From Planctomycetota bacterium (GTDB lineage Bacteria > Planctomycetota > UBA1135 > UBA2386), in assembly GCA_036160175.1 (NCBI GenBank), contig JAYYEE010000118.1, forward strand, positions 1 to 50,928: a DNA stretch of 50,928 nt, read 5' to 3'. This document shows, in pieces, positions 6,360 through 50,928 of this stretch (position 1 is the first letter of the stretch; each line of letters begins with the position of its first letter). A model generated the notes under the pieces. It was not told the DNA's origin and did no database searches. It saw only the letters and a program-made list of their open reading frames with translations. Both the position numbers and the translations under genes were made by a program.

Positions 6360-7499
6360 ATGTCCGCCACTCCTCCTTCGAACCTGCAAGGCACCGAGAC
6401 GCCGAGCCCGTTTGAGGTCCTCTGGGAGCGATACAAGTCGCTCATCATGACCATCATCGCTGCCATCTTGATCGCCCTGGTCGGCAACTACGCCTGGAAG
6501 ACGATGGACCAGAAGGCGGTCGACGAGAAGTGGTCTAAGTTCTCTGCAAATATCGGCATTGCAGATACTTACGTAGATTTTGCCAAGGCCAATGAGTCGC
6601 TGACGACGGCCGTTGAGGGCATGGAGCTGGCGACGCTCGAGTCCGGTCTCGCCGGATCCGACGATACGCAGCGGCCCTACTTCCTGTTGGCGATCGCCCG
6701 CAAGGCGATGATCGACAAGGACTGGGATCGCGCGACGGCCGAGCTCACGAAGCTGGAGTCCGAGTTCCCGAGCCACTCGTTGGTCACCAAGACCAAGTCC
6801 CCGCCGCAGGGTCGGGATGAGATCAAGCCGGAAGACGGCGCGAAGCCGAGCGACATCCAGTTCGAGCCGAGCACCGAGGGAAGCGTCGTCTCGCTGATGC
6901 GCAACCAAATCGCCCAGGCCAAGGGCTTCGAGCGGCCGGCTGCGTTCCAAAAGCCTGAGGTGCCGGCAGACGCCGCTAAGGTCAAGATCACCTTCGGCGA
7001 CTACGGTTCGGCGACGTTCGCGCTCATGCCGCAGGCCGCTGAGCACACGAAGAAGTTCCTCGAGCTCGCGAAGCAAGAGGAGGGTGGCTTCTGGAATGGC
7101 CTGGCCGTGGACGAGATCCAGCGTGGCACGGAGAGCTTCGAGCGCCCCTACGCCATGCACTTTGGGTTCGCCTCCACCAGGGAGGATGACCGCACCAAGT
7201 GGACCACGACCGAGCCCAGCGAGAACCAGTTGGACTGGGAGGAAACGGGGCTCAGCCACTTTGAGGGCGCGATCGCGGCCCGCCAAGAAGCGGATGGCAA
7301 GTCCTGCGCGGACCGCATTTGGGTCTACATCGATGATCAGGCGAACCTCGACGGCAGCAACGTCGTCTTCGGCTACGTCGTCGAGGGCCTCGACGTGCTG
7401 CGGTCCATCTGCGAGGCCGGCATGTCGGCCGAAGAGGAAGACCGCGGCTTCGGCCGTCCGAGCGAGAACATCCGCGTCACCGCGGTGGAAGTCCTCTAA
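6360..7499 (+). CDS. Membrane-anchored cyclophilin-like domain protein (degenerate PPIase motifs)
   Basis: N-terminal TM helix LIMTIIAAILIALVGNYAW. The C-terminal 170 aa align by eye to the cyclophilin fold: KITFGDYGSATFALMPQAAEHTKKF..., ...LDGSNVVFGYVVEGLDVLRSI. However, the FHRVI and GSQFFI signature positions read FWNGLAV and ADRIWVYI. Confidence 0.6.
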   Translation: MSATPPSNLQGTETPSPFEVLWERYKSLIMTIIAAILIALVGNYAWKTMDQKAVDEKWSKFSANIGIADTYVDFAKANESLTTAVEGMELATLESGLAGSDDTQRPYFLLAIARKAMIDKDWDRATAELTKLESEFPSHSLVTKTKSPPQGRDEIKPEDGAKPSDIQFEPSTEGSVVSLMRNQIAQAKGFERPAAFQKPEVPADAAKVKITFGDYGSATFALMPQAAEHTKKFLELAKQEEGGFWNGLAVDEIQRGTESFERPYAMHFGFASTREDDRTKWTTTEPSENQLDWEETGLSHFEGAIAARQEADGKSCADRIWVYIDDQANLDGSNVVFGYVVEGLDVLRSICEAGMSAEEEDRGFGRPSENIRVTAVEVL

Positions 7500-7565
7500 G
7501 CTCTGCGCCGCGAAGCGCGCATCCACGCGCGCCGAGTGACCGGGCGCCCTTTGTGCTCGAGCGAA

Positions 7566-7603
7566 GCAGGGGGGCGCGGAAGCGCTGTGGCGCCCTCCCC
7601 TGC
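7566..7603. terminator. Imperfect GC-rich hairpin between convergent cyclophilin-like gene and parB
   Basis: GCAGGGGGGCGC ... GCGCCCTCCCCTGC inverted repeat (one or two mismatches) in the 110-nt convergent intergenic region. There is no clear U-tract. Confidence 0.3.
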
Positions 7604-7609
7604 CGATCT

Positions 7610-8353
7610 CTAGGAGTTCTTGAGCCTAGAGAAGAGCCGGTCGAGCTCCTCCCGGCTCCCGCACTCGATCACGATTTGGCTGCGCTTGCGCCCATACTTG
7701 ATCGTCACCGGAGTGCTGAGGGTGTCGACCAGCGTCTCTTCGAGCTCGTTGAGCCAGACAGGTCGGTCGCCCTTGCCCTTTGGCTTGCTGCCCGCGTCGC
7801 GCTCCTGCTTCGTGCCCTTCGAGCCTTCGAGCATGTCCTTCACCAGCGACTCGAGCGCGCGCACCGAAAGGTTCTGTTTGATGGTAGCGCCTGCCGTGAT
7901 CTCCATGGTCTCGTGATCGGGCAGCGCGAGCAGGCAGCGCGCGTGGCCCATCGAGAGTGTTCCACGTGAAACATGCGCCTGCACGGCTTGGGGGAGGTCG
8001 AGCAACCGAAGGAAGTTCGCGACGGTCGAGCGCTCGAAGCCGACTTGCTTGGCGACCTGTGCCTGGGTCGCTTGCATCTCGTCCATCAGCAGCTTGATGC
8101 CTTGCGCCTTCTCGATGGCGTTGAGGTCCTCGCGCTGGAGGTTCTCAACCAGCGCGAAGACGGCGCTCTCGTTATCCGACATGTCCCTGCAGAGGACCGG
8201 GACCTCCTGAAGACCTGCCATCTGAGCCGCCCGCCAGCGCCGTTCGCCGGCGACGATCTGGAAGCGATCTCCCACCTTGCGTGCCAGGATGGGCTGCAAG
8301 ATCCCGCTCTCGCGGATCGACTCCGCGAGCGTCTTGAGCTCGGCCTCCACCAT
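7610..8353 (-). CDS. parB: Chromosome partitioning protein ParB (as bounded by the first canonical start; the conserved N-terminal box continues in frame up to 8494, see findings)
   Basis: SGILQPILARKVGDRFQIVAGERRWRAAQMAGLQEVPVL is the ParB GERRxRA box, followed by the HTH region and GHARCLL. It lies directly downstream of parA. Confidence 0.9.
   Translation of the reverse strand: MVEAELKTLAESIRESGILQPILARKVGDRFQIVAGERRWRAAQMAGLQEVPVLCRDMSDNESAVFALVENLQREDLNAIEKAQGIKLLMDEMQATQAQVAKQVGFERSTVANFLRLLDLPQAVQAHVSRGTLSMGHARCLLALPDHETMEITAGATIKQNLSVRALESLVKDMLEGSKGTKQERDAGSKPKGKGDRPVWLNELEETLVDTLSTPVTIKYGRKRSQIVIECGSREELDRLFSRLKNS
7958..7973. promoter_or_regulatory. parS centromere-like site
   Basis: TGTTCCACGTGAAACA matches the 16-bp parS consensus TGTTNCACGTGAAACA at every defined position. 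It lies inside the parB coding sequence (codons HVSRGT). Confidence 0.85.
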
Positions 8354-8537
8354 CTCTTTGCGAGGCTGGTATGGGTTGGGATCGAGCGACGCGACCGGGA
8401 CCTTCGCGACCTCCTCACCGCGTGGCTGAGCCGGTGTAGCCTCTGCCGCTTGCGAGCTGGCTTGGGGCTTGCTGGCATCTGCGGCGGGCTTGCGCTAACC
8501 GGACAAGAAGAAATCGAGACCTCTACCTAAACGACGA

Positions 8538-9251
8538 TCAACCATGAATGATCTCCTGTACGAGCTCCGCATAGCAAAGAGCTCCTTTGGACCAGGGACT
8601 GTGTACGAACGCGGATGTCCCGTGACTCGCCGCTTCTACCAAGCTCGAGTCGCGGAAGATGACGGATTGAAGGAGGAGGTCGCCGAGGTTCTTGCGCAGG
8701 TCTTCTAGGACCTCGGCTGCGATCTCCTCGCGGGTGTCGACCATCGTGGGGAGGACGCCTCGAAGCCGGCCCTTTCCAGGGAATCGCTGCGCAGCCTCCT
8801 CAAGCGAGGCCATCATCTGCGACAACCCGTGCATGGAGAAGAACTCGGCCTGGACAGGAATGAGGACCTCATCGCAAAGCTGGACGCCTGCCCATCCCCA
8901 TTCGTCCATGCGAGGAGGCGAGTCGACCACCAGGGTGTCGATGTCGTCAGCGAGACCTTTCACGACGTCTTCGAGCTTCGCAGTGTCGAGGCTCGCCTGG
9001 TCGCCTGGTCCGTTCGCGCCTGCTGATGGGGCCAGCCAGAGACGTTCGGCGATCGGCGTCATCCATTCGTGGGCCGTCTTGGAGGCGCCTGCATCGCGCA
9101 TTCCTTGCACGGCTACGGTGGCGTTGCCTTGCGGATCCAGGTCCATCAGCAGCACCCGATGACCTGCAATGGCGAAGCCATGAGCCAAGTGGATGGCGGT
9201 CGTCGTTTTGCCGACGCCGCCTTTCTGATTTGCCAGGACGATCGAGCGCAA
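8538..9251 (-). CDS. parA: Chromosome partitioning ATPase ParA/Soj
   Basis: The N-terminus RSIVLANQKGGVGKTTTAIHLA carries the deviant Walker A KGGVGKT, followed by LLMDLDPQGNAT. TTG start at 9251. 237 aa. Confidence 0.9.
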   Translation of the reverse strand: MRSIVLANQKGGVGKTTTAIHLAHGFAIAGHRVLLMDLDPQGNATVAVQGMRDAGASKTAHEWMTPIAERLWLAPSAGANGPGDQASLDTAKLEDVVKGLADDIDTLVVDSPPRMDEWGWAGVQLCDEVLIPVQAEFFSMHGLSQMMASLEEAAQRFPGKGRLRGVLPTMVDTREEIAAEVLEDLRKNLGDLLLQSVIFRDSSLVEAASHGTSAFVHSPWSKGALCYAELVQEIIHG

Positions 9252-9378
9252 GGTTCCCTAACCAGGCAGACTGACCAGCTGCCGTGTTCGGCCGATTGTG
9301 CGGGCTGTGCCATTCTGAATCCAGGGCTTGTCCTGAGACATGCGGCCTAGGATATAACAGCGCTAGGTCGCCGAACTC

Positions 9379-9966
9379 ATGCATCGCCAATTGCGCATCC
9401 TATGGCTTCTATCCTTGGCCCGGCTTCGGTCGGCAGGCTGGGCTCCATGGCTCCTGCTGCTTGGATGGTTGGGGTTCGCTGCTGTGCAAGAACCGCGCAT
9501 GCTGCGTAGGTTTGGGATCCACTTGATCGACGACGCTGCTTGGGTTGGCGGCCTCCTGATGCTGTGCATCCTGCTCGCTGCTCAGCGTCGACTGCCGAGG
9601 GGAGGCGCGGTCGCGGCCAACTTGGTGACGGTCGCGGTGCTCGGCTTGCTCGTGATGCTGCTAAGTCGCGTGGTGGATGTAGATCCCTGGGCCGAAGGGG
9701 TCGCCGCCCGAATATACGATGCCACCGGATTCCTGGCGGCGTGGTCGCCGTTTGCCATCTGCGCGGCGCGTGCACCGGTCGGCGGTCGAGGCGCCGCGAT
9801 CCTGCACGCCACGCTCGTGCTTGCTTCTCTCATGACGGGTAGCATGCTGGCGGCGGCCCTGCGGGCAGAGCCATCCTTGAAGTGCTGGTGCGCTGCGGGC
9901 CTCGCATCGCTCGCATCATGCCTCTGGCTGGCTTGCCTAGAAAGTGTAAATACCTGTCGTAAATGA
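9379..9966 (+). CDS. Hypothetical polytopic membrane protein
   Basis: 195-aa ORF with 4-5 hydrophobic segments. Its stop overlaps the next gene's ATG (ATGA at 9963-9966), which suggests real co-translation. Codon usage is somewhat atypical and I found no motif. Confidence 0.5.
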   Translation: MHRQLRILWLLSLARLRSAGWAPWLLLLGWLGFAAVQEPRMLRRFGIHLIDDAAWVGGLLMLCILLAAQRRLPRGGAVAANLVTVAVLGLLVMLLSRVVDVDPWAEGVAARIYDATGFLAAWSPFAICAARAPVGGRGAAILHATLVLASLMTGSMLAAALRAEPSLKCWCAAGLASLASCLWLACLESVNTCRK

Positions 9967-41296: not shown

Positions 41297-41929
41297 CTAC
41301 CAGATCGGGATCGGCAGCCAGAGCAGGTGGAGCGTGCTCTGGTGCTCGTCGCCCGTGTAGCCGAGCAGCCCCCTTAGGAACTTGGCGCTGCGGTGGTTGG
41401 CCAGCCCAGGCGAGTCTCCCGAGCGCTCGTAAGAGAAGACGAGCCCCCAGCCGACGCCGAAGGAAGACTGCCAGCGAACGAGCGCGCCGTCGGGGTCCCA
41501 GCTGCCGATCCGCTGGTTGTAGAGCGCGGCGCCCAAGGCGACGGCCCCGCCGCTCCGGTGCTCGTAGCCGCTGATCGGCGCGAGGGCCTCCTCCTCTTCG
41601 TTGAGCTGCACCTCCCCGCGGTGCAGGGAAGTCGACGTGTCGAAGCTGGCGGTGGCCAGCGGCGCGAAGCCGAATGGCAGGCCCGAGATCCGCCCCTCGA
41701 TGGTCTCAGTGTTCTCCGCAGAGAGCGGCTCTGCCTGCTGCTTGAGGTGATGGAGGTCGAGGCCGCTCAGGTGCTGCTGCGTGTCGATCTCTCGCGCGCT
41801 GCCGACCGTGCAGGAGGGCAACGTGAAGGCGCAGGCGAGCGCGAGCGCGGTAGCGGCGCGCAGCGTCCGCGAGGCGGGCGCGGACGGGGCGTTGTCGTGG
41901 GGTTGTGAGCTTGGAGCGTGGGGATTCAT
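41297..41929 (-). CDS. Lipoprotein, unknown family (long paralog; C-terminal LHLLWLPIPIW)
   Basis: 210-aa ORF. ...AATALALACAFTLPSCTVGS is a signal with Cys. It shares the blocks DL(D/H)xLK, LP(I/F)xFAPL and LHLLW(I/L)PIP with the 40852-41181 product. Confidence 0.65.
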   Translation of the reverse strand: MNPHAPSSQPHDNAPSAPASRTLRAATALALACAFTLPSCTVGSAREIDTQQHLSGLDLHHLKQQAEPLSAENTETIEGRISGLPFGFAPLATASFDTSTSLHRGEVQLNEEEEALAPISGYEHRSGGAVALGAALYNQRIGSWDPDGALVRWQSSFGVGWGLVFSYERSGDSPGLANHRSAKFLRGLLGYTGDEHQSTLHLLWLPIPIW

Positions 41930-42181
41930 GGTCGTACCGGATTCTAGGGCGGATCGCCTGCGCGCGGCATGGCCGCAGCGGAACTGGCGTCATTAGCGGG
42001 CCTTCCGAGTTCCCGTTGCATCAAAGCGCTAGGAAATCCGATCACCACAGGCGTTATTCCCGGGCGCGGCTTTTGGTTGCGGGTCCGCGAGGTCTAGTCA
42101 TGATGACGCCGTGCATGTCCAAACGACCGTGCTCTCATCTGCTGGGCAGTCTCTGTTCTCAGCGAGGCAGGAGCTACCCGC

Positions 42182-44026
42182 ATGAGTAGCAAGGCTGACT
42201 GCTTGATCGTCGGCGGCGGCCCCGCTGGCCTCACCACCGCATACGAGCTTGGTAAGTACGGCAAGTCGTCGCTCGTCCTCGAAGGGGGCGACGACGTCGG
42301 CGGGCTGTCCAAGACCTGCGAATACAAGGGCTACCGGTTCGACATCGGCGGCCACCGCTTCTTCACCAAGGTCGACTACGTCCAAGAGCTCTGGCTCGAG
42401 ATCCTCGGCGACGAGTTCCTGAGCCGGCCTCGCCTGTCTCGCATCTTCTACCGCGGGAAGATGTTCGACTACCCGCTCAAGCCGCTCAACGCGCTGCGGG
42501 GGCTCGGCTTGTTCGAGTCGTTCCGCATCGGCATGAGCTACCTGCGGGCGTCCTTCTTCCCGTCGCGAGAAGAGCGGAACTTCGAGCAGTGGGTCTCGAA
42601 CCGCTTCGGTAAGCGGTTGTTCCAGATCTTCTTCAAGACCTACACCGAGAAGGTCTGGGGCATTCCGTGCGATCAAATCAGCGCGGAGTGGGCCGCGCAG
42701 CGGATCAAGAACCTCGACCTGCGCGCTGCGGTCATCAACGCGTTCCTCGGGGCCCGCAAGAAGGGCGGCAAGGAGGTGATCACGACGCTGATCGAGCGCT
42801 TCCAGTACCCGCGCTTTGGTCCAGGTCAGATGTGGCGTGCTTGCGCAGACAAGCTGCGCGCGCAGGGCAACTCGGTCGAGCTTGGCGCGATGGTCACGCG
42901 CCTGCGGCATGATGGAACGCGCGTGCTCTCCGCGACGGTGACGCGCAAGGACGGCAGCCAGGAAGAGGTCGAGGCCCCGAACTTCGTCTCGACGATGCCG
43001 GTGCGCGACCTGCTGCGCGCGCTGGATCCGCCGCCGCCGCCGGAGATCATCGCGGCCAACGACCGCCTCCGGTACCGCGACTTCCTGACGGTCGCGGTGA
43101 TCGTTGACGCCGCCGAGTTGTTCCCGGACAACTGGATCTATATCCACGCCCCTGACGTCAAGGTCGGCCGCATCCAGAACTACAAGAACTGGAGCCCGGA
43201 CATGGTGCCGGACCAGAGCAAGACGGCGCTCGGTCTCGAGTATTTCGTCCAGGAGGGCGATGACCTCTGGACGATGTCGGACGAAGACCTCGTCGCTCTC
43301 GCGACCAAGGAGTGCGAGCAGCTCAAGCTCATCCCCGCGGGGACGGTCGAAGGCGGTTGCGTGATCCGCGAGAAGAAGGCCTACCCGGTCTACGACGACG
43401 TCTACAAGGAGGCGCTCGAGGAGCTCCGCGCGTATCTCGGCAAGCTCGAGAACCTGCAGCTGGTCGGTCGAAACGGCCAGCACCGCTACAACAACCAGGA
43501 CCACTCGATGATGTCTGGCGTGCTCGCGGCGAGGAACATCGCCGGCGAGGAGCACGACGTCTGGGCTGTGAACGTCGAGCAGGACTACCACGAGGAGAAG
43601 CGGACGGAGCAAGGCAGTGGCGCCACGGGTGAGCGCCTAGTCCCGGGCCGCGTCAGCGAGCGCGAGATCGACGAGGTGCTCGACGCCACCTTCGCGCGCC
43701 ACGACCCTGTCGCCCTCGGCGTCGCGGTCGCGGTGGTCGCCGGTGTCTGCCTGTTCCTCGCGACGGCGGTGTTGCTGCTGCGCGGCGGCGAAGGGGTCGG
43801 CCACAACCTCTCGGTTCTCGGCAACTACCTCTACGGATACAGCGTCAGCTGGACGGGAGCGGTGATCGGCTTCTTCGAGGCGGCGGCCGTGGGCTTCGCT
43901 CACGGGTGGCTGATCGGCAAGCTGGCGAACGCGATCGTCGGCCGGGAAGAGCGCCGCTTGAAGACCCTCATCGCCGCTGCGGCGGCGTCACCCGACTCTC
44001 TCGCCAGGGGAGACTCAGAGCGATGA
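42182..44026 (+). CDS. NAD(P)/FAD-dependent oxidoreductase (amine-oxidase/UDP-galactopyranose-mutase-like fold) fused to a C-terminal two-TM module
   Basis: The N-terminus DCLIVGGGPAGLTTAYELGKYG...VLEGGDDVGGLSKT...YRFDIGGHRFF has the Rossmann GxGxxG plus the conserved downstream motif. The last about 107 aa (from nt 43703) form two hydrophobic helices around LLLRGGEGVGHNLSVLGNYLYGYSVSWTGAV. Confidence 0.8.
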   Translation: MSSKADCLIVGGGPAGLTTAYELGKYGKSSLVLEGGDDVGGLSKTCEYKGYRFDIGGHRFFTKVDYVQELWLEILGDEFLSRPRLSRIFYRGKMFDYPLKPLNALRGLGLFESFRIGMSYLRASFFPSREERNFEQWVSNRFGKRLFQIFFKTYTEKVWGIPCDQISAEWAAQRIKNLDLRAAVINAFLGARKKGGKEVITTLIERFQYPRFGPGQMWRACADKLRAQGNSVELGAMVTRLRHDGTRVLSATVTRKDGSQEEVEAPNFVSTMPVRDLLRALDPPPPPEIIAANDRLRYRDFLTVAVIVDAAELFPDNWIYIHAPDVKVGRIQNYKNWSPDMVPDQSKTALGLEYFVQEGDDLWTMSDEDLVALATKECEQLKLIPAGTVEGGCVIREKKAYPVYDDVYKEALEELRAYLGKLENLQLVGRNGQHRYNNQDHSMMSGVLAARNIAGEEHDVWAVNVEQDYHEEKRTEQGSGATGERLVPGRVSEREIDEVLDATFARHDPVALGVAVAVVAGVCLFLATAVLLLRGGEGVGHNLSVLGNYLYGYSVSWTGAVIGFFEAAAVGFAHGWLIGKLANAIVGREERRLKTLIAAAAASPDSLARGDSER

Positions 44027-44328
44027 GCCCATCCGAACGTGAATTGATCGGTCACGCGATCGCCAGGATGCGCTCGCGCATCATGGCGACGACCTGCGCG
44101 ATCCTCGGCGGTTCGATCTTGTGGATCGCCACCATGCTGCACCTCGGGCGCGAGCAGGCGCCGGGGTCGATGGACATCGCGCTGCTCGCGAATTACCTGC
44201 CCGGATACTCGGTCAGCTGGGGGGGCGCTCTGTTGGGCCTCATCTACGGCGCCGTCTTGGGCGCGCTCGTCGGCGGCGTGTTCGCGTGGGCCTACAACCG
44301 GCTCTCGCCCAGAGAACCGCTGGCGTGA
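44023..44328 (+). CDS. Small two-TM membrane protein (YLPGYSVSW module, free-standing copy 1)
   Basis: ATGA overlap with the oxidoreductase stop. 101 aa. ...ILWIATMLHLGREQAPGSMDIALLANYLPGYSVSWGGALLGLIYGAVLGALVGG. Confidence 0.7.
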   Translation: MSPSERELIGHAIARMRSRIMATTCAILGGSILWIATMLHLGREQAPGSMDIALLANYLPGYSVSWGGALLGLIYGAVLGALVGGVFAWAYNRLSPREPLA

Positions 44329-44398
44329 GGCGCATGTCGACGAGCTCGAGTCGACGCGGCCGTCGGCTGGGTCCGCTGTCGGCGTCAGGGGCCGTCAG

Positions 44399-45319
44399 AT
44401 GAGCCGCGGCCTGTCGGTCGTGATCCCCACGCATCGGCGACCCGAGCGGCTCGCTGGGTGCCTCGCGGCGCTCGCGGCCTCGGAGTATCCGCACGGCCCG
44501 CTTGAGGTCGTGGTCGTAGAGGATGGAGGACCGACGAAGGAGCTCGACGCGCTGCGTGGACGGACCTTCGACTCGTTAGAGCTGGTGTGGCTGGATCAAC
44601 CCCACAGCGGCCCGGCCGTCGCGCGGAACCTAGGCGCGCAGCGCGCGACCAGAGACCTGATCGCGTTCACGGACGACGATTGCAGGCCGCGGCCCGACTG
44701 GGCGCGCCGCCTCGACGCGGCCCTCAGAGCGTCGCCAGGCGCGGTCGTCGGCGGCCGCACCGTCAACGCGCTCGCCGAGAACCTCTGGTCTAGCGCGAGC
44801 CAGGCCCTCGTCACCTACATCACCGCGCGCGGCCAGGAGGCCGGCGGGGAGCCGTTCTTCGCGTCGAACAACTTCGCGCTCGAGCGCGACGTCTTCTGCC
44901 GTCTTGAGGGCTTCGACGAGGGGTTCCCGCTAGCTGGCGGCGAAGACCGGGACATGTGTCGGCGGCTGGTGGAGGACGGCCGCGATCTCGTCTGGGTGCC
45001 GGACGCGGTCGTCGACCATTACCACGACCTGAGCGCGAAGCGGTTCTGGCAACAGCACTTTCGCTACGGCCGGGGCGCGTATCAGTATCACTGCGCGCAG
45101 GGCCTGCGCGCGGACCCGACCGACCAGAACCCGAGCCGCGGCGTCTGGAACATGCGCGCGAAGTTCTACCTGGACCTCGTGCGCTCGCCATTTCGGTACC
45201 GCGACGCGCCGCAGCGGCTGCGGATCGCGGCCCTGTTGCTGTTCTCACAGCTGCCGAACGCGCTGGGTTTCTTCGCCGAGCGTCGCCGCGACCGCGAGTC
45301 ACGCGGCGACCACGCGTAG
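44399..45319 (+). CDS. Glycosyltransferase family 2 (soluble type)
   Basis: LSVVIPTHRRPERLAGCLAALAAS...VVVVEDGG...ARNLGAQRATRDLIAFTDDDC...GGEDRD: the GT-A fold with DxD (DDD) and ED motifs. Confidence 0.85.
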   Translation: MSRGLSVVIPTHRRPERLAGCLAALAASEYPHGPLEVVVVEDGGPTKELDALRGRTFDSLELVWLDQPHSGPAVARNLGAQRATRDLIAFTDDDCRPRPDWARRLDAALRASPGAVVGGRTVNALAENLWSSASQALVTYITARGQEAGGEPFFASNNFALERDVFCRLEGFDEGFPLAGGEDRDMCRRLVEDGRDLVWVPDAVVDHYHDLSAKRFWQQHFRYGRGAYQYHCAQGLRADPTDQNPSRGVWNMRAKFYLDLVRSPFRYRDAPQRLRIAALLLFSQLPNALGFFAERRRDRESRGDHA

Positions 45320-45322
45320 CCC

Positions 45323-46840
45323 TCAGCGGCTTCGATGAAGCAGGCGACGGAGCGAGGCGCGGTCTTCAGGTCCGAGCCCGAAGATGGCGTAGAGGGCTAG
45401 CCAGCCCGCCGCGAGCGCCAGGAGCGCGCCGACCCATCCCAGGATCCCGCCGAGCGCGTCGTGGATCGGCTGCGCGAACGCACAGATCGCGCCTGCCGCG
45501 AGCAGCGCGACGCCGCTGTCGAGCGACCAAGGGTGGATCCCGAACGACCACCAGACCTGGGCGGCTTGCGCGAGCCGCACCGCGGTGAGCGCGGCCATCG
45601 TCGCGCACGCCGCGCCATACGCGCCGTGCTCGGGGATCCAGAGCAGGCTGAGCGCGGTGTTGAGGCTGAGCATCACGATCACGTTGATCATGTTCTGGCG
45701 GACGCGCCCCATCGCGATCAGCGCCTTGCCGCACGACCCAGTCATGGCTGTAGACGCGTGTCCAAGCGCGAGCATCGCGAGCGTCGGGCCACCTGCCGTG
45801 AACTCTGGCCCGAACAACCCGAGGATCTCGCCCCCCCAAACAACGAACATGAGCGCGGCGCCGGTCGCGGACCAAATCGACCACCGCCCAGTCCGCTTGT
45901 ACAAGGCGCTGAGCCCCTCCATGTCGCCTGCGACGAAGCGCTCGCTGGCGTGAGCGTAGAAGAGCTGGGCGGCGCTTTGATGAACGATGAAGACGACCGG
46001 GAGCATGCGGGCCGCCGCGCCGTAGACGCCGACTTCGAACGGCTCGTTGAGCACGCCGAGCAGCACGATGTTGACGCTTGAGAGCGCGAACGCGACCAGG
46101 GCGGAGCCGAGCAGCGGCCAGCAGGTGCGGATCAGCGGCCACGCCGGCAACGGCGCCGTCGGGGCCCCCGCGCTGAGCGCCCCTGGGACGCGGGCGTTCA
46201 CGAAGCCGACGCTGCATGCGAGTCCGGTCGCTGGACCGAGCAACGTCGCGGCGAGGACGCCTGTCAAGCCGAGCTCAAACCACCACGCTGCAGCCAGGCC
46301 GGCGAGCGTCGCGACGACGGTCACGACCTTCTCGATCAACGCGTGGGCGCGCATCGCCTTGAACCCCTGGGCGATCGCCAGGGACCCGAGCATGACGGCC
46401 GTGAGGACGATGATCGGTCCGAACCAGCGCAGGATCGGTTCGAGCGCGGGGTCGTCGTAGACGGCGCGCGCGAGCCATGGCGCGAGCAGCACGACTGCGA
46501 TCGCCGTGATCAAGGAGGCGACGAGCGTGACCACCCAGGTCGCGCGCACGACGGCGCGGAGCCTCGGGGCGTCGTCATCGAGCCGCGCCCGAGCGACCGA
46601 GGGCACGACGCCTGGCACCAAGCCGAGCGTCGCGGTCATGCTGAGCAGCTGCGCGATGGTCTGCGCCTGCACGTAGCTCCCGAACAGCGCGACCCCGAGG
46701 ATGCGCGTCGTCAGCACCGCCGCGACATAGCGGAGCGCCATGCCGGCGACGCTAGCGAGCACCGTGAAGCTGACTTGGCGACCGGCCTCGTCGACCTGGG
46801 GCGGCGCAGCTCCTTCAGACGGTTCTTTGTCGGTCGCCAT
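45323..46840 (-). CDS. Polysaccharide/oligosaccharide flippase (Wzx-like, MOP superfamily)
   Basis: 505 aa, about 12-14 TM helices. The N-terminal pattern ...LRYVAAVLTTRILGVALFGSYVQAQTIAQLL is typical of polysaccharide biosynthesis (Wzx/RfbX) proteins. Confidence 0.75.
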   Translation of the reverse strand: MATDKEPSEGAAPPQVDEAGRQVSFTVLASVAGMALRYVAAVLTTRILGVALFGSYVQAQTIAQLLSMTATLGLVPGVVPSVARARLDDDAPRLRAVVRATWVVTLVASLITAIAVVLLAPWLARAVYDDPALEPILRWFGPIIVLTAVMLGSLAIAQGFKAMRAHALIEKVVTVVATLAGLAAAWWFELGLTGVLAATLLGPATGLACSVGFVNARVPGALSAGAPTAPLPAWPLIRTCWPLLGSALVAFALSSVNIVLLGVLNEPFEVGVYGAAARMLPVVFIVHQSAAQLFYAHASERFVAGDMEGLSALYKRTGRWSIWSATGAALMFVVWGGEILGLFGPEFTAGGPTLAMLALGHASTAMTGSCGKALIAMGRVRQNMINVIVMLSLNTALSLLWIPEHGAYGAACATMAALTAVRLAQAAQVWWSFGIHPWSLDSGVALLAAGAICAFAQPIHDALGGILGWVGALLALAAGWLALYAIFGLGPEDRASLRRLLHRSR

Positions 46841-46884
46841 CGGGGTGCTCCGACCTTATACGATGTGCCGACCCCTCGCGATCG

Positions 46885-48171
46885 ATGCAGCTAGATGACG
46901 AACGTCCGATGAACTCTCCCGCAACACGAGGTCCGCAGCCGCCGGTCAGGTTCGGCGGCGCTCGGTGGCTCAACGTCGCGCTCGCCGCGATGGGCTTCCT
47001 CGCGCTCGTTTGGCTCGGCTACCAGACCTGGCGACTCCTGTTTCAGGCGGCCCCCAAGGGCGCGGTCGACCTCCTCCTGCGCCACGGGGAGTGTCAGGAG
47101 TGGTTCCGCGGCGTCGCAATCTACGAGACGCGGGTCGACGCGGTGTATCCGCCGGCGAGCTACCTCGTGCTGTGGCCGCTGCTCGGCTGGTCGAGCACTG
47201 GGTTCGTGCGCGTCTTTTGGCTGGCGCCGACCATCTTATCGACCGCGTGGCTGTGTGCGTTGGTCGCGCGCCACAGCGGCGCTCTCGACGCGTCTCGGCG
47301 CCGCCTGCTCTGGGTGTTACCGCTCGCGAGTTACCCGATCGGCGCGAGCGTCGGCAACGGCCAGCTGTCGATCCTCGTCGTCGCCTGCGTCGGCGCGGGC
47401 GTGATGCTAGTCGCCGACGCGCCGCGGTCTTGGCGCCGGGACCTGTCGATTGCGGCCTTGATGCTGGTGGCGCTCGTCAAGCCTTCCATGTCGGCGTACT
47501 TCTTCTGGATCCCGCTGCTCATCCCGGGCGGCTTCCGCGCGGCGTGCCTCGTAGTCGCGGGCTACGCGCTGCTGACCGTCGCAGCGTGCGCCGCGCAGCC
47601 ACATGGCCCCGTCGACCTGATCGAGCAGTGGCTGAGCCGGGCCGCCGCGGGCGTACGATATGGCGCCTCCGTCGGCGGCGGCGCGATGCCACTCGCCAAA
47701 GGCTCGAGCATCACCGGGATCAACCTGCACAGCGTCCTGATCGCGCTCGGCCAAGGCGCTTGGATCCGCATGCTGTCGCCGGCGCCGCTACTACTGCTCG
47801 GGGCCTGGGTCTTCATGCGCCGCCGCGCCGACGTGCTGATTTTGCTCGGGGTGGCCGCGATCGTCGCGCGCTTTGCTTCGTATCACGGCTGGTATGACGA
47901 CGTGCTGCTGCTCATGCCGCTCGTCGCGCTGATCCGCTGCGCGCGCGTCGCCGAAGCTCCCCGCGCGCGCGCCGTAGCGGCGTGGCTGGCGTTGGTCGGC
48001 GGGCTCTTCCTGCTGGCGCCGGGTGGGACGCACTTGGGCCGGCTGGGGCTGCCGACCTTGGCTAACGTCTACGTGGTCTCCCAGGCGGTCTTCTGGGTCG
48101 TCGCGATGGTCTTCTTGGCGCGCGCAGCGCGAAGTCCCGTTCCGTTGGCACACGCTGTTGCTTCTGCCTGA
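46885..48171 (+). CDS. Polytopic membrane glycosyltransferase, GT87/DUF2029-like (GT-C fold)
   Basis: About 10 TM helices. The first periplasmic loop DLLLRHGECQEWFRGVAIYETRVDAVYPPASYLVLWPL matches the DUF2029 pattern (D...y.....G..iY......YPP). The start is ATG 46885 or 46909. Confidence 0.6.
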   Translation: MQLDDERPMNSPATRGPQPPVRFGGARWLNVALAAMGFLALVWLGYQTWRLLFQAAPKGAVDLLLRHGECQEWFRGVAIYETRVDAVYPPASYLVLWPLLGWSSTGFVRVFWLAPTILSTAWLCALVARHSGALDASRRRLLWVLPLASYPIGASVGNGQLSILVVACVGAGVMLVADAPRSWRRDLSIAALMLVALVKPSMSAYFFWIPLLIPGGFRAACLVVAGYALLTVAACAAQPHGPVDLIEQWLSRAAAGVRYGASVGGGAMPLAKGSSITGINLHSVLIALGQGAWIRMLSPAPLLLLGAWVFMRRRADVLILLGVAAIVARFASYHGWYDDVLLLMPLVALIRCARVAEAPRARAVAAWLALVGGLFLLAPGGTHLGRLGLPTLANVYVVSQAVFWVVAMVFLARAARSPVPLAHAVASA

Positions 48172-48198
48172 CCCCCCGCCTACGACGAAGCACCAACC

Positions 48199-48495
48199 AT
48201 GACCGAACTACCCGCGCGGCGAAGATACGTTCAACTGCGGACCGGAACGATGGCGTCGTTGTTCGCGGCGTTCGGCGCGTTGGCGCTGTTCGTCGCGACG
48301 AGCGTGCTCTTGCTCCGCGGCGGGCAAGACGTGGGCAAGCACCTGCAGCTGCTGCGCTACTACCTGCCCGGCTACTCGGTCAGCTGGACAGGCGCGCTGC
48401 TGGGCCTCCTCTACGGCGCGCTGCTCGGGGCGCTCATCGGCGCGTCGATCGCGAAGATCTCCAACGCGGTCACCGCGCGCCGGCACCGCTCGTGA
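48199..48495 (+). CDS. Small two-TM membrane protein (YLPGYSVSW module, free-standing copy 2)
   Basis: 98 aa. ...ALALFVATSVLLLRGGQDVGKHLQLLRYYLPGYSVSWTGALLGLLYGALLGALIGAS. The stop overlaps the next gene's GTG. Confidence 0.7.
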   Translation: MTELPARRRYVQLRTGTMASLFAAFGALALFVATSVLLLRGGQDVGKHLQLLRYYLPGYSVSWTGALLGLLYGALLGALIGASIAKISNAVTARRHRS

Positions 48496-49475
48496 GCGTC
48501 ACCGTCAGCGCCGTCGTCCCGGTGTTGGACGGCAAACACCAGCTCGAACGTAGCCTGCCGCCGCTGCTCGCGGCGAAGGACGCTGGTCAGCTGCTGGAGG
48601 TCTTGGTGGCAGACGACGGCTCGGCCGACGGCTCCGGCGACTACGCCCGCGCGCTGGGCGCGACGGTGGTCACGACGGATCGTCGCGCGAGCGGCCCGTC
48701 GCTAGCGCGCAACGTGGCCGCCGCGCAGGCTCGCGGCGACGTGCTGCTGTTCGTCGACGCGGACGTGGTCGTGGACGACGACGCCGTCAGGCGGGTCCGC
48801 GCGACGTTCGATGACCCGGCGGTCGGGTCCGTCTATGGCAGCTACGACGACGCGCCCGACCATCGCGGATACGCGAGCCTCTACATGAACCTGCGCCACC
48901 ACTTCGGTCACCGGGGGCGGCGCGACGACGTAGACACGTTCTGGGCTGGCCTCGGCGCGATCCGGCGCGACGTGTTCGACGAGGTCGGGGGGTACGACGT
49001 CGACGCGTTCCCCTACCCGAGCGTGGAAGACATCGACCTCGGACGTCGCCTCCGGGCGGCGGGCGCGAAGATCCGCCGCGACCCAGAGATTCGGGGCAAG
49101 CACCTCAAGCGTTGGACCTGGTGGCAGGTCATGCACACCGACGTGATGCGCCGGGCGGCGCCGTGGAGCCGCCTGATGCGCCAATACCCGGGCGCGTTCC
49201 GCGACCTGAACGTCTCCCACAAGGAGAAGTTCAAGGCGCTGCTCGCGCTCGCGTTCGTCGTCAGCGGCCCTTTGGCGGCGCTCGGACTCGCGCCGCTTTG
49301 GGCTTGGCTCGTCTGCGCGGCGGGCATCGCGGTCGCCAACGCGGGCCTGATGGGCGTGTTCCTCCGGTGCGGCGGCCCGCTATTCGCGGTCGTCGGCGTG
49401 GTCTTTCACCAACTCCACCTCTGCTATAGCGCGGCCACTTTCGTCGCCTGTCGACTGCTACCGCTGCCGCGGTGA
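48492..49475 (+). CDS. Glycosyltransferase family 2 with two C-terminal TM helices (polyprenyl-phosphate sugar synthase-like, GtrB/DPM1 architecture)
   Basis: VSAVVPVLDGKHQLERSL...VLVADDGSADGS...ARNVAAAQARGDVLLFVDADV (DxD). The C-terminal hydrophobic segments are ALLALAFVVSGPLAALGLAPLWAWLVCAAGIAVA and LFAVVGVVFHQLHLCYSAATFV. Confidence 0.8.
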   Translation: MSVTVSAVVPVLDGKHQLERSLPPLLAAKDAGQLLEVLVADDGSADGSGDYARALGATVVTTDRRASGPSLARNVAAAQARGDVLLFVDADVVVDDDAVRRVRATFDDPAVGSVYGSYDDAPDHRGYASLYMNLRHHFGHRGRRDDVDTFWAGLGAIRRDVFDEVGGYDVDAFPYPSVEDIDLGRRLRAAGAKIRRDPEIRGKHLKRWTWWQVMHTDVMRRAAPWSRLMRQYPGAFRDLNVSHKEKFKALLALAFVVSGPLAALGLAPLWAWLVCAAGIAVANAGLMGVFLRCGGPLFAVVGVVFHQLHLCYSAATFVACRLLPLPR

Positions 49476-49494: not shown

Positions 49495-50928
49495 TTAGCG
49501 GTTCGGGATCGACGCGAGCGCCCGCTCGATCTGCGCCCGCAGCTGCGGGTTGGCGCGGAGCTTCGGGACGCGCAGCGCCGTGCTGAAAGCCTGGCGCGCC
49601 TCCTGTCGCTGGCCGCGCCCGGCGTAGATGCGTCCGAGCGTCGCCAGCGCCATCGGCTCGCGTTGGCCGGTCGCCCGCACCGTCAGCTTGGCGAGCAGGA
49701 GGCCCTGCTCGCGTTGCGGCGTCGACTGCCCGTTAGACGCTGCTTGGAGCGCCATCCCGCTCAGCCTGCTGAGCCGATCTGGGTCGAGCGCGAGCGCCTT
49801 GCGCAAGTGCTCCTCGGCCTCCTTGTAGAGCTTGAGCGTCGGCGCGAGGCACTTCAGCGCCCACTCCTCCTGGATCGACGGGTTCTTCGGCGCCAGCCTC
49901 ACGGACTTGCGAAATGCCTTTATGGCGCGCTCGCGCAGGTTCATCTTCAGGCACAGTCGACCCATTTGCTGGTGGGCCTTGGGGTCGCGCTTGCGCAGCT
50001 TGAGGCACGCCTCGCAGCGCTCGAGCGCGCCCTGCATGTCGCCGGTCTCAAAGAGCATCTGCGCGAGCTTCCAGCCGGACTCGAAGTCGGGTCGGAGATC
50101 AAACGCGCGCTGGGCGTGGTGCATCGCGCCCTCTTTGTCGCCGGCTTCCAGGTTGGGCTGCACGAGGCAGAGGTGCGCGCGCCAGTTGTCAGGCTGCACG
50201 TCGAGCGTGGACTCCCAAACGCTGAGCTCGCTGCGGAAGTCCCAGTTCCGCGCGATCGAGAGGCCGCTGAGGATGGCGATGACGACGGCGAGGAGTGGCT
50301 TCGTCGAGATCTCTAGACGCGCGCACAGGCGCCGCCCGCCCGCGACGCCGAAGGCGATCACCGCGATGAGGGGCAGGTACATCCGGTACTCGCACATCAG
50401 GTCGTTGATCACGATGAAGCTCGACGTCGGCGCGAGGACGAGGAAGAACGCCGCGCGGGCGACGCCTTGCCAAGAGCGCTTCAGCAGCTGCCGGATGGTG
50501 AACGCCAGCAGCGCGCCGAGCGCGAGCGACGGCAGCGCGACGTCGAGGCCCCCCTCGGCTGGCTGCAGCCCCCAGTCGAAGCAGAGCGGATACGGGGTGA
50601 CCGCGAGGCGGAGGTAGTCGAGCACGACGCCCGGCTGGCTGCTCGCGTACTCCCAGGTCTTGAAGTCGCCGCGGCTCGTCGGTGTGCTCGGCCAGTAGAC
50701 GAAGACGCCGTACAGGAGGACAGCTACGAAGATGCTGTAGAGCGGCAAGCGTGCAAGGAGGGCGCCGCGCAAGGAGCCGCTGATCAGCACCCAGTCGTAG
50801 AGCAGCAGGACCGGGATCACGGTGACCATGGTCTCCTTGGTGCCGAAACCCAGCAGGCAGCACGCGATCGTCAGCAGGGGCCAGCGGCGTTGCTGCGGCG
50901 ACTCGTGCGCGCGCAGCGTGGAGTAGAT
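49495..50928 (-). CDS. TMTC/PMT-like GT-C membrane domain fused to C-terminal TPR repeats (N-terminus beyond the window)
   Basis: The frame stays open to the window edge (IYSTLRAHESPQQRRWPLLTIACCLLGFGTKETMVTVIPVLLL...). TM-rich part with GxxxKE(T) and E(Y)RMYLP motifs typical of DUF1736/PMT_2-type enzymes, then at least 5 TPR units in the last about 240 aa. Confidence 0.75.
   Translation of the reverse strand: MYSTLRAHESPQQRRWPLLTIACCLLGFGTKETMVTVIPVLLLYDWVLISGSLRGALLARLPLYSIFVAVLLYGVFVYWPSTPTSRGDFKTWEYASSQPGVVLDYLRLAVTPYPLCFDWGLQPAEGGLDVALPSLALGALLAFTIRQLLKRSWQGVARAAFFLVLAPTSSFIVINDLMCEYRMYLPLIAVIAFGVAGGRRLCARLEISTKPLLAVVIAILSGLSIARNWDFRSELSVWESTLDVQPDNWRAHLCLVQPNLEAGDKEGAMHHAQRAFDLRPDFESGWKLAQMLFETGDMQGALERCEACLKLRKRDPKAHQQMGRLCLKMNLRERAIKAFRKSVRLAPKNPSIQEEWALKCLAPTLKLYKEAEEHLRKALALDPDRLSRLSGMALQAASNGQSTPQREQGLLLAKLTVRATGQREPMALATLGRIYAGRGQRQEARQAFSTALRVPKLRANPQLRAQIERALASIPNR

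Follow-up and report, generated by a model that had tools for sequence, protein, structure and literature searches.

Small membrane subunits of glycan-synthesis enzymes are a known kind of protein. In dolichol-phosphate-mannose synthase, DPM2 and DPM3 are two-transmembrane (two-TM) proteins of about 85-95 amino acids (aa), whose heteromer tethers and stabilizes a soluble family 2 glycosyltransferase (GT2) on the cytoplasmic face. A likewise small, two-TM module was found three times in a glycosylation cluster of an uncultured marine planctomycete, once as the C-terminal tail of a flavoenzyme and twice as a free protein; the stretch analyzed, 50,928 nucleotides (nt) of contig JAYYEE010000118.1 (assembly GCA_036160175.1), is called the window below. 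The modules sort into two types, A and B, and untruncated loci from several phyla hold exactly one A with one to three B copies, mostly close to a mutase-like flavoenzyme and a TM-bearing GT2. The best reading, held with moderate confidence, is that A and B form a heteromeric membrane core that would tether the mutase-like enzyme beside the GT2. The module family, its A/B organization and a membrane-tethered mutase are undescribed in the libraries and literature searched.

Two types of a small membrane module

The first-pass annotation of the window had proposed a triplicated module, and the peptides it quoted were found where it had placed them. About 125 C-terminal residues of the flavoenzyme and both small proteins align over some 95 columns, 24 of them invariant, including Y-L-x-G-Y-S-V-S-W, and pairwise BLASTP comparisons confirmed the paralogy, with E-values of 3e-17 for copies 1 and 3, 5e-12 for copies 1 and 2, and 4e-9 for copies 2 and 3. 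The free copies are, as had also been claimed, alike in their DNA: the 27-mer TACCTGCCCGGMTACTCGGTCAGCTGG, located at 44194 and 48361, matches at 26 of 27 bases, with zero such matches expected from 100 shuffles. A search of the window with the module profile returned exactly these three copies. By hydropathy, the free copies have two TM segments each, and the fused copy has one clear TM segment and a weaker, Gly-rich one.

A profile built from the three copies and their close relatives retrieved 1093 representatives at E<=1e-3 (468 at E<=1e-10), each standing for a cluster at 50% identity; the family reaches across at least eight phyla. A single module measures about 100-150 aa, and among the best 150 representatives about 30 are double, two are triple and several are fused to larger proteins. 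Genomic context was studied in 66 loci, collected by scanning one genome per species for the pattern Y[LM]PGY[ST]V[ST]W. They come from Planctomycetota, Acidobacteriota, Gemmatimonadota, Myxococcota, Verrucomicrobiota, Spirochaetota (Spirochaetaceae), and beta- and gamma-Proteobacteria (mostly Halioglobus/Halieaceae); all of their reading frames were searched with the module profile and the window proteins, and their gene calls are heuristic. By the profile search, two or more modules are present in 63 of the 66 loci (34 with two, 27 with three, and 2 with four).

A FastTree maximum-likelihood tree of 162 module copies separated two clades, A and B, with Shimodaira-Hasegawa-like support of 0.97. 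Window copy 1 belongs to clade A, along with all copies on the flavoenzyme C-terminus and the free copy that comes first in the gamma-proteobacterial trios. Window copies 2 and 3 belong to clade B, which also contains the free partner copies and the two halves of the double modules. When locus compositions were read from the tree, 34 were AB, 29 were ABB and 1 was ABBB, and AA never occurred. Exactly one A with one to three B copies was found in 64 of 64 untruncated loci, the only exceptions to the A+B rule being three loci in which a single module, of type B, was found. The 310 proteins retrieved include 77 B-B doubles and 67 A-B-B triples, and zero A-A proteins. Where a protein of more than 420 aa has a single module (26 cases), the module is always of type A, and 26 of the 64 type-A copies in the tree sample are fused to the flavoenzyme and one to a GT2. 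This composition, with A attached to an enzyme and B often doubled, is the pattern that would be expected of an obligate heteromer.

Profiles of A and B from which the window and its close relatives had been left out assigned copy 1 to type A (111 bits against A, 88 against B), and copies 2 (76 and 89 bits) and 3 (80 and 97 bits) to type B. The proposed triplication is therefore correct in number, but the copies are not equivalent: they are the common A+B+B set. Since both window B copies fall in the same B sub-clade, they derive from a duplication inside the planctomycete lineage.

Although of type B by tree and profile, copy 3 shares 49% identity (E 3e-17) with copy 1, of type A, and only 36% (E 4e-9) with copy 2, of type B. 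The IAKISNAV at its C-terminal end resembles IGKLANAI of copy 1, and the Tyr that typically precedes the conserved Asn in type B is missing. Gene conversion or co-adaptation inside the genome may account for this likeness.

The mutase-like flavoenzyme and the membrane GT2

The protein that carries copy 1 had been labeled a flavin adenine dinucleotide (FAD) oxidoreductase. The fusion itself stands, but the enzyme is better described as a flavoenzyme resembling uridine diphosphate (UDP)-galactopyranose mutase (UGM). Its best family match is NCBIfam NF005548 (PRK07208.1-4; 700 bits), a model labeled only 'hypothetical protein', and it fell below the cut-offs of the UGM models (Pfam GLF, 21.8 versus 26.3 bits; TIGR00031, 37.5 versus 303.75 bits). 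In phmmer searches of PDB, it matched the eukaryote-type UGMs 3UKA and 3UTE of Aspergillus fumigatus (E 2e-26) and 4DSG of Trypanosoma cruzi (3e-20). With positions mapped to A. fumigatus UGM numbering through the 3UKA alignment, the equivalents of H63 (in the GGH loop), F66, Y104, Y162, W167, R182, W315, Y317, R327, R447, Y453, and N457 were found to be invariant in 56 orthologs; in the UGM literature, these are active-site residues. An FAD Rossmann fold, the GGH histidine loop, and the active-site Arg, Tyr, Trp and Asn residues are all present. Because UGMs are its closest relatives in PDB and the active-site residues are invariant, the flavoenzyme is best interpreted as a mutase of the pyranose/furanose type, whose sugar pocket is specific to the family, and not as an oxidase. 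A carotenoid or hopanoid glycoside pathway, with a CrtI/HpnE-like enzyme and a CruG/HpnI-like GT2, was considered and rejected, as PRK07208 scored 700 bits and the respective models only 30-41 bits, and the UGM site is intact.

The TM-bearing GT2, here called GT2b, has orthologs in most loci, with 35-45% identity to the fusion protein P0124, in which a GT2b-type enzyme is followed by a type-A module. In 40 orthologs, including that of the window, the motifs DDG, DxD, ED and H-L-K-x-W are invariant or nearly so. D42, D89xD91, and E179-D180 are invariant, and H204-L-K206-x-W208 occupies the place of QxxRW, of which neither Q nor R is kept; the equivalence of these motifs to D, DxD, TED and QxxRW of the synthases was judged by position. 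When the model of the P0124 fusion was compared with PDB, BcsA (E 1.5e-11), archaeal PcManGT and hyaluronan synthase were matched, with template-modeling scores (TM-scores; TMq and TMt, over the query and the target) of TMq 0.46, TMt 0.56 and TMq 0.50, respectively, and an overall range of 0.44-0.56. The model suggests that GT2b has a minimal cellulose-synthase-like fold.

Genomic neighbors and fusions

The profile search, with its 1093 clusters, and the tabulation of fusions and neighbors revealed two conserved partners of the module, the mutase-like enzyme and the TM-bearing GT2 (48492-49475 in the window). A flavoenzyme homolog is present in 60 of the 66 loci and a related GT2 in 51, and modules are fused to the flavoenzyme, to GT2 and to Wzy_C, so the association with glycan genes suspected from the window recurs elsewhere. 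Homologs of the window-type GT87, PMT/TPR and MOP proteins were found by phmmer in only 2, 4 and 6 of the 66 loci, respectively, and this rarity defines the core of the system as the flavoenzyme, the TM-bearing GT2, and two or three modules. By this comparison of loci, the GT-C part of the window, together with MOP, appears to be a lineage-specific addition; MOP/MatE genes nonetheless recur near other systems.

Several gene architectures were observed. An enzyme-module fusion followed by a free module is found in Planctomycetota, Acidobacteriota, Myxococcota, Spirochaetaceae, and one Gemmatimonadota locus, and the free module comes first in some Acidobacteria. The gamma-Proteobacteria have a free module, a double module and a separate enzyme, the module genes abutting the flavoenzyme gene and the GT2 lying 0.1-5 kb downstream. 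In loci L024 and L065, a free module precedes a double module fused to the enzyme, and in Opitutaceae (L032) a GT2-module fusion precedes a free module. Thus far, type A has been found fused after the flavoenzyme and after a GT2b-type GT2 (P0124, P0147, L032), and B-B pairs before the flavoenzyme (P0046, L024, L065). A targeted search for further GT2-A fusions yielded three only, which leaves little paired information in the alignment behind the P0124 model. In the 780-aa protein P0017, three modules, all scoring as type B, precede Wzy_C (O-antigen ligase/polymerase-like), and one gene for an A-B-B triple lies immediately 5′ of an Amino_oxidase gene.

P0017 ties the module to an enzyme active at the membrane's outer face. 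About 600 nt downstream of the A-B-B triple/Amino_oxidase pair, past a 73-aa open reading frame (ORF), lies a gene for a 1710-aa GT4-/GT2-type protein (L071:11280-16412).

A Pfam tally of 126 other neighboring genes in 30 diverse loci was led by GT4 (9), GFO/IDH/MocA (8), Polysacc_synt MOP (7), PMT_2 (5), and further GT2 (4). In two Halioglobus loci (L044:9959-16203 and L054:9908-16860), the system is followed by two GT4 genes, a GT2, a PIG-L-type de-N-acetylase, a MatE transporter, and a DAGAT/PlsC-like acyltransferase, a gene set that looks like a glycolipid pathway. Locus L044 belongs to Halioglobus sp. Uisw_031, whose complete chromosome record (NZ_CP159826.1) carries the system.

Adjacent to A+B pairs that lack a neighboring flavoenzyme, genes for proteins of 447-592 aa with no Pfam match at E<=1e-4 were observed at L039:10202-11638(-), L053:2507-4066(-), L049:10243-11586(+), and L037:10533-12311(-). 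These proteins may be another, undescribed partner of the modules. In the Opitutaceae metagenome-assembled genome (L032), a GT87 gene (6990-8321(-)) stands divergently beside the GT2-A fusion (8533-9918(+)); a free B, a GFO/IDH/MocA dehydrogenase, and Acyl_transf_3 come next. The window's association with GT87 thus recurs in another phylum, at a locus with no flavoenzyme nearby.

Module anatomy, topology and family tests

Each module is a hairpin of two TM helices, joined by a short amphipathic outer-face helix and the turn P-G-Y-S/T-V-S/T-W. The residues common to A and B are T35 in TM1, L52-L53, Y56, G59-Y60, V62, S/T63, and W64 in the loop, and G66, G70, G78, G82, and N90 on one face of TM2. 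In profile numbering, the small residues of this face follow an i, i+4 spacing, G66-G70-G74-G78-G82-A86-N90. The small-xxx-small pattern of a glycine zipper was recovered in types A and B, with Gly or Ala at 42-100% at positions 66, 70, 74, 78, 82 and 86, and with G78 and G82 at 100% in type A; in copy 3 the zipper reads GALLGLLYGALLGALIGASIA. Judged from its residues, this face suits very tight helix packing. Type A has, in addition, a pre-TM helix, F-A-R-x-D-x-x-A-L-G, so that copy 1 comprises the pre-TM helix FARHDPVALG, TM1, the outer loop NLSVLGNYLYGYSVSW, and the glycine-zipper TM2.

The flanks of the hairpin hold 1.5-1.6 Lys and Arg per 10 aa, compared to 0.41 in the loop, and any fusion order leaves the flavoenzyme or GT2 catalytic domain on the side of both module termini, that is, in the cytoplasm. 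These two lines of evidence indicate an N-in/C-in hairpin, with the conserved loop directed outward. An AlphaFold2 model of a homolog, the A-B-B fusion P0018 (344 aa; 109-sequence alignment), was obtained with a mean predicted local distance difference test score (pLDDT) of 86.6 and a predicted TM-score (pTM) of 0.85, and shows TM1, a loop helix of about 10 residues, a turn, and a long TM2 in each module. Foldseek found no PDB match to this A-B-B model at E<=0.001, the best having an E-value of 1.1, so the fold offered no hint of function.

The first-pass annotation had recognized no named domain, and searches of Pfam and NCBIfam returned sub-threshold matches only. The best match to PF18926 (DUF5676, a 2TM family of unknown function) reached 18.5 bits (E 0.004) against a gathering cut-off of 27.6, and covered profile positions 51-82 of 82, corresponding to TM2 only; the other copies scored 16.6 and 11.5 bits. 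The remaining sub-threshold Pfam matches were to Gly-zipper families, or were chance ones such as Ost5. GtrA-like, DPM2, DPM3, PgaD and IcaD families gave zero Pfam matches to the three copies up to E=10, and lycopene-cyclase-type small membrane domains likewise had no Pfam match. The source records name family members 'hypothetical protein' only, and none carries a precomputed Pfam domain. In the literature searched on PRK07208, UGMs (membrane-bound ones included), small two-TM partners of glycosyltransferases, and galactofuranose in Planctomycetes, the module is undescribed.

Organization of the cluster in the window

The features of the cluster are collected in Table 1. The overlap coupling reported earlier for two gene pairs is present in the sequence: the flavoenzyme stop and the start of copy 2 share ATGA at 44023-44026, and the stop of copy 3 and the GTG start of GT2b share GTGA at 48492-48495. 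Copy 3 begins after a gap of 27 nt from the end of the GT87-type gene, and the full-length ortholog of the truncated PMT_2/TPR protein, in locus L001, has 632 aa.

Table 1. Coordinates of the module copies and accompanying genes in the window.
Feature	Position	Strand	Evidence or remarks
Flavoenzyme, 614 aa	42182-44026	+	PRK07208 family; C-terminal tail is module copy 1
Flavoenzyme catalytic part, UDP-galactopyranose-mutase-like	42182-43651	+	NF005548, 700 bits; phmmer against PDB; invariant UGM residues
Module copy 1, type A, fused to flavoenzyme C-terminus	43652-44026	+	Profile match 43670-43954; tree clade A
Module copy 2, free, type B, 101 aa	44023-44328	+	Two TM segments; B profile scores above A profile
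Soluble GT2, 306 aa	44399-45319	+	Pfam Glycos_transf_2, E 2e-21; zero hydrophobic segments by hydropathy
MOP-family (Polysacc_synt, Wzx-like) flippase candidate	45323-46840	-	PF01943, E 3.7e-19; eleven hydrophobic segments
GT87-type GT-C glycosyltransferase	46885-48171	+	PF09594, 31.9 bits against a cut-off of 25
Module copy 3, free, type B, 98 aa	48199-48495	+	Two TM segments; B profile scores above A profile
Membrane GT2 (GT2b) with C-terminal helices	48492-49475	+	PF00535, E 5e-21; TM segments at residues 249-291
PMT_2/TPR GT-C-like protein, cut by window end	49495-50928	-	Strong TPR family matches; weak PMT_2 match

Close relatives of the window organism keep the entire cluster in the same gene order. 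At least 20 metagenome runs from the sea or seawater, belonging to about 11 studies and all of them DNA runs, contain sequence near-identical to 42182-49475. A metatranscriptome from the same sample (n=1) contained none of the stretch.

A block at about 41990-42025, some 150 nt 5′ of the flavoenzyme start, reads TTCCCGTTGCATC in the window and TTCACGTTGCATC in relatives, and is kept in three related contigs. A small ORF upstream of the flavoenzyme (41905-42189; a 52-aa gene in L001) was treated as non-coding, because the indels among relatives are not multiples of three. The block is probably a promoter or a 5′ untranslated region (5′-UTR) element, rather than part of a small ORF.

Proposed role and alternatives

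In the favored reading, one A and one to three B hairpins would pack through their Gly faces into a core of 4-8 helices, six of them in the A+B+B set of the window. This core would be the membrane subunit of a three-part system, together with the cytoplasmic mutase-like flavoenzyme and GT2b; in the window, the former is tied covalently to A, and the latter is translationally coupled to the second B. With the mutase held against the GT2 at the cytoplasmic membrane face, a thermodynamically disfavored nucleoside diphosphate (NDP)-furanose could be channeled, being consumed as it forms, and a membrane-bound acceptor would be glycosylated. The additional proteins of the window (the soluble GT2, the MOP flippase and the two GT-C proteins) would then use or extend the product outside the cytoplasm. 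A tethering or oligomerization role had been suggested from the window, and gains indirect support from the one-A-plus-B composition, the B-B and A-B-B fusions, and the A-B-B homolog model; the GT-C genes, which had been counted among the partners, are not conserved ones.

Several points weigh against this reading. Two pocket positions of the flavoenzyme are unlike those of characterized UGMs, with the equivalent of A. fumigatus Y334 replaced by an invariant Trp, and that of N163 by Thr or Ser. A and B modules occur with no flavoenzyme within 10 kb in L032, L039, L049 and L053, so the mutase is not an obligate neighbor. The division into A and B is set by the midpoint root of the tree, and the pattern used for recruitment biases the loci toward members that keep the motif. 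Both structural models are of homologs and not of the window proteins; the six-helix bundle is suggested by the pTM and the six long predicted helices of the A-B-B model, and the GT2b-A fusion model of P0124 (pLDDT 89.3, pTM 0.77) does not by its pTM alone prove that A docks on the GT2 helices. Finally, the conserved outer loop and the polar T35 and N90 within the membrane exceed the needs of a passive anchor, and hint at an extra function.

One such function would be translocation. The A and B helices, alone or with the GT2 helices, could form the path by which a lipid-linked sugar or a nascent glycan crosses the membrane, with tethering of the mutase being secondary. This seems unlikely overall, although the outward-facing loop, and T35, N90 and the Gly face inside the membrane, would fit it, and glycine-zipper helices typically line channels. 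In this case, the modules would work in the manner of GtrA or ArnE/F, or of the channel half of a synthase. A GtrA-like gene is absent from the core systems in Pfam scans of the window and its neighbors, the nearest structures to the GT2b-A model are two channel-forming synthases, BcsA (TMq 0.46) and hyaluronan synthase (TMq 0.50), along with the minimal PcManGT, and the D, DxD, ED and H-L-K-x-W motifs are placed as are D, DxD, TED and QxxRW in the synthases. In one protein, moreover, three modules are joined to Wzy_C, which works on the outer side of the membrane. On the other hand, the TM-scores of 0.46-0.50 are borderline and owe most to the GT-A domain, Foldseek matched no transporter or channel to the six-helix model (best E 1.1), the recurrent MOP/MatE-type transporters could flip the product, and a covalent link between A and a soluble cytoplasmic enzyme is most readily seen as an anchor. 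A more specific form of the idea, which we put forward tentatively and consider improbable, is that A and two B modules are the detachable TM half of a split, minimal cellulose-synthase-like glycosyltransferase, arranged around the GT2 helices, providing the path for a lipid-linked sugar or polymer that contains furanose, and docking a UGM-type mutase, whose unstable NDP-furanose would pass straight to the active site. If true, this would represent a previously unknown class of furanoside synthase-translocases in at least eight bacterial phyla.

The modules could also activate or stabilize the GT2 in the manner of PgaD/IcaD or DPM2/DPM3, perhaps as regulatory subunits. PgaC activity needs the small membrane protein PgaD (PMC8461298). 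The L032 locus, where A and B accompany a GT2 with no flavoenzyme nearby, the existence of GT2-A fusions, and the coupling of the window's second B to GT2b all point in this direction. However, A is joined to the flavoenzyme far more often than to a GT2 (26 of 64 copies in the tree, versus one, and three GT2-A proteins from the targeted search), the gamma-proteobacterial modules abut the flavoenzyme gene while the GT2 lies 0.1-5 kb away, and Pfam shows no relation to PgaD, IcaD, DPM2 or DPM3. An activator role appears less probable than translocation.

That the hairpins are independent, passive anchors, which do not assemble and are alike through duplication only, is very unlikely. The fused copy obviously anchors a soluble enzyme, and Gly-rich TM helices are common, but the free copies have nothing to anchor. 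Independent anchors also leave the one-A-plus-B rule of all 64 untruncated loci, the abundance of B-B and A-B-B fusions, the predicted compactness of the triple (pTM 0.85), and the retention of the loop motif across phyla without a reason.

A holin-like pore former, prompted by sub-threshold matches to NCBIfam NF037947 (holin_4, 'bacteriophage holin'), can be dismissed as having a negligible chance: each copy is matched across nearly all 75 profile positions, the scores are 20.5, 21.1 and 15.7 bits for the window copies, 15.7-22.9 bits for single copies in general and, summed over three stretches, 62.7 bits (E 3e-17) for the A-B-B triple P0018, and class II holins share the layout of two TM helices, N-in/C-in topology and a Gly zipper, but every score lies below the 70-bit cut-off, the modules are covalently joined to metabolic enzymes, and the reading was rejected because they are absent from phage collections (zero PHROG matches at E<=0.1, zero tblastn matches at E<=1 in 50,697 phage records, and zero among IMG/VR viral contigs) and have glycan enzymes, never lysis genes, as neighbors.

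Returning to the A/B core as a tether for the mutase-like enzyme, the strictness of the one-A-plus-B rule and the fusions found in nature allow a defined heterocomplex in the membrane to be predicted, which is rarely possible from sequence. If the flavoenzyme is a furanose mutase, it would be the first membrane-tethered one, and would point to so far unknown envelope glycans or glycolipids that contain furanose in Planctomycetota, Acidobacteriota, Gemmatimonadota and marine gamma-Proteobacteria. More than 1000 sequence clusters, from many environmental phyla, belong to this unnamed system.

Comparison with known systems

Like DPM2 and DPM3, to which Pfam shows no relation, the module is a small two-TM protein; it differs in residing mainly on a mutase-like flavoenzyme, in having an outer loop motif of its own and A and B paralogs, and in being bacterial and present in several phyla. 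The resemblance to PgaD/PgaC and IcaD/IcaA lies in a small membrane protein placed beside a membrane GT2, and extends to the synthase-like fold predicted for GT2b and its motifs. Homology to PgaD or IcaD was not detected, and PgaD is a single protein regulated by cyclic di-GMP (c-di-GMP), whereas the modules comprise one A with B copies, usually on a mutase. GtrA and ArnE/ArnF, flippase candidates in pathways of lipid-phosphate sugars, are small TM proteins that work with a lipid-loading GT2 and an outside-acting GT-C, and the window's GT2, GT87 and PMT/TPR genes follow the same logic. GtrA is a single chain of four TM helices with a Pfam family of its own, unmatched by the modules, and MOP transporters are also present here.

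The flavoenzyme shares the GGH loop, three arginines, and the Tyr, Trp and Asn pocket residues with the eukaryote-type UGMs. The known UGMs are soluble, whereas the PRK07208-type enzyme ends in two-TM modules or adjoins a gene for them. The NF037947 holin and DUF5676 are similar to the modules in length and two-TM layout, and give reproducible, weak matches that stay below the cut-offs. Overall, the nearest known systems, DPM2/DPM3, PgaD/IcaD, GtrA and ArnE/F, would be alike in their working, as analogs of the A/B modules rather than relatives.

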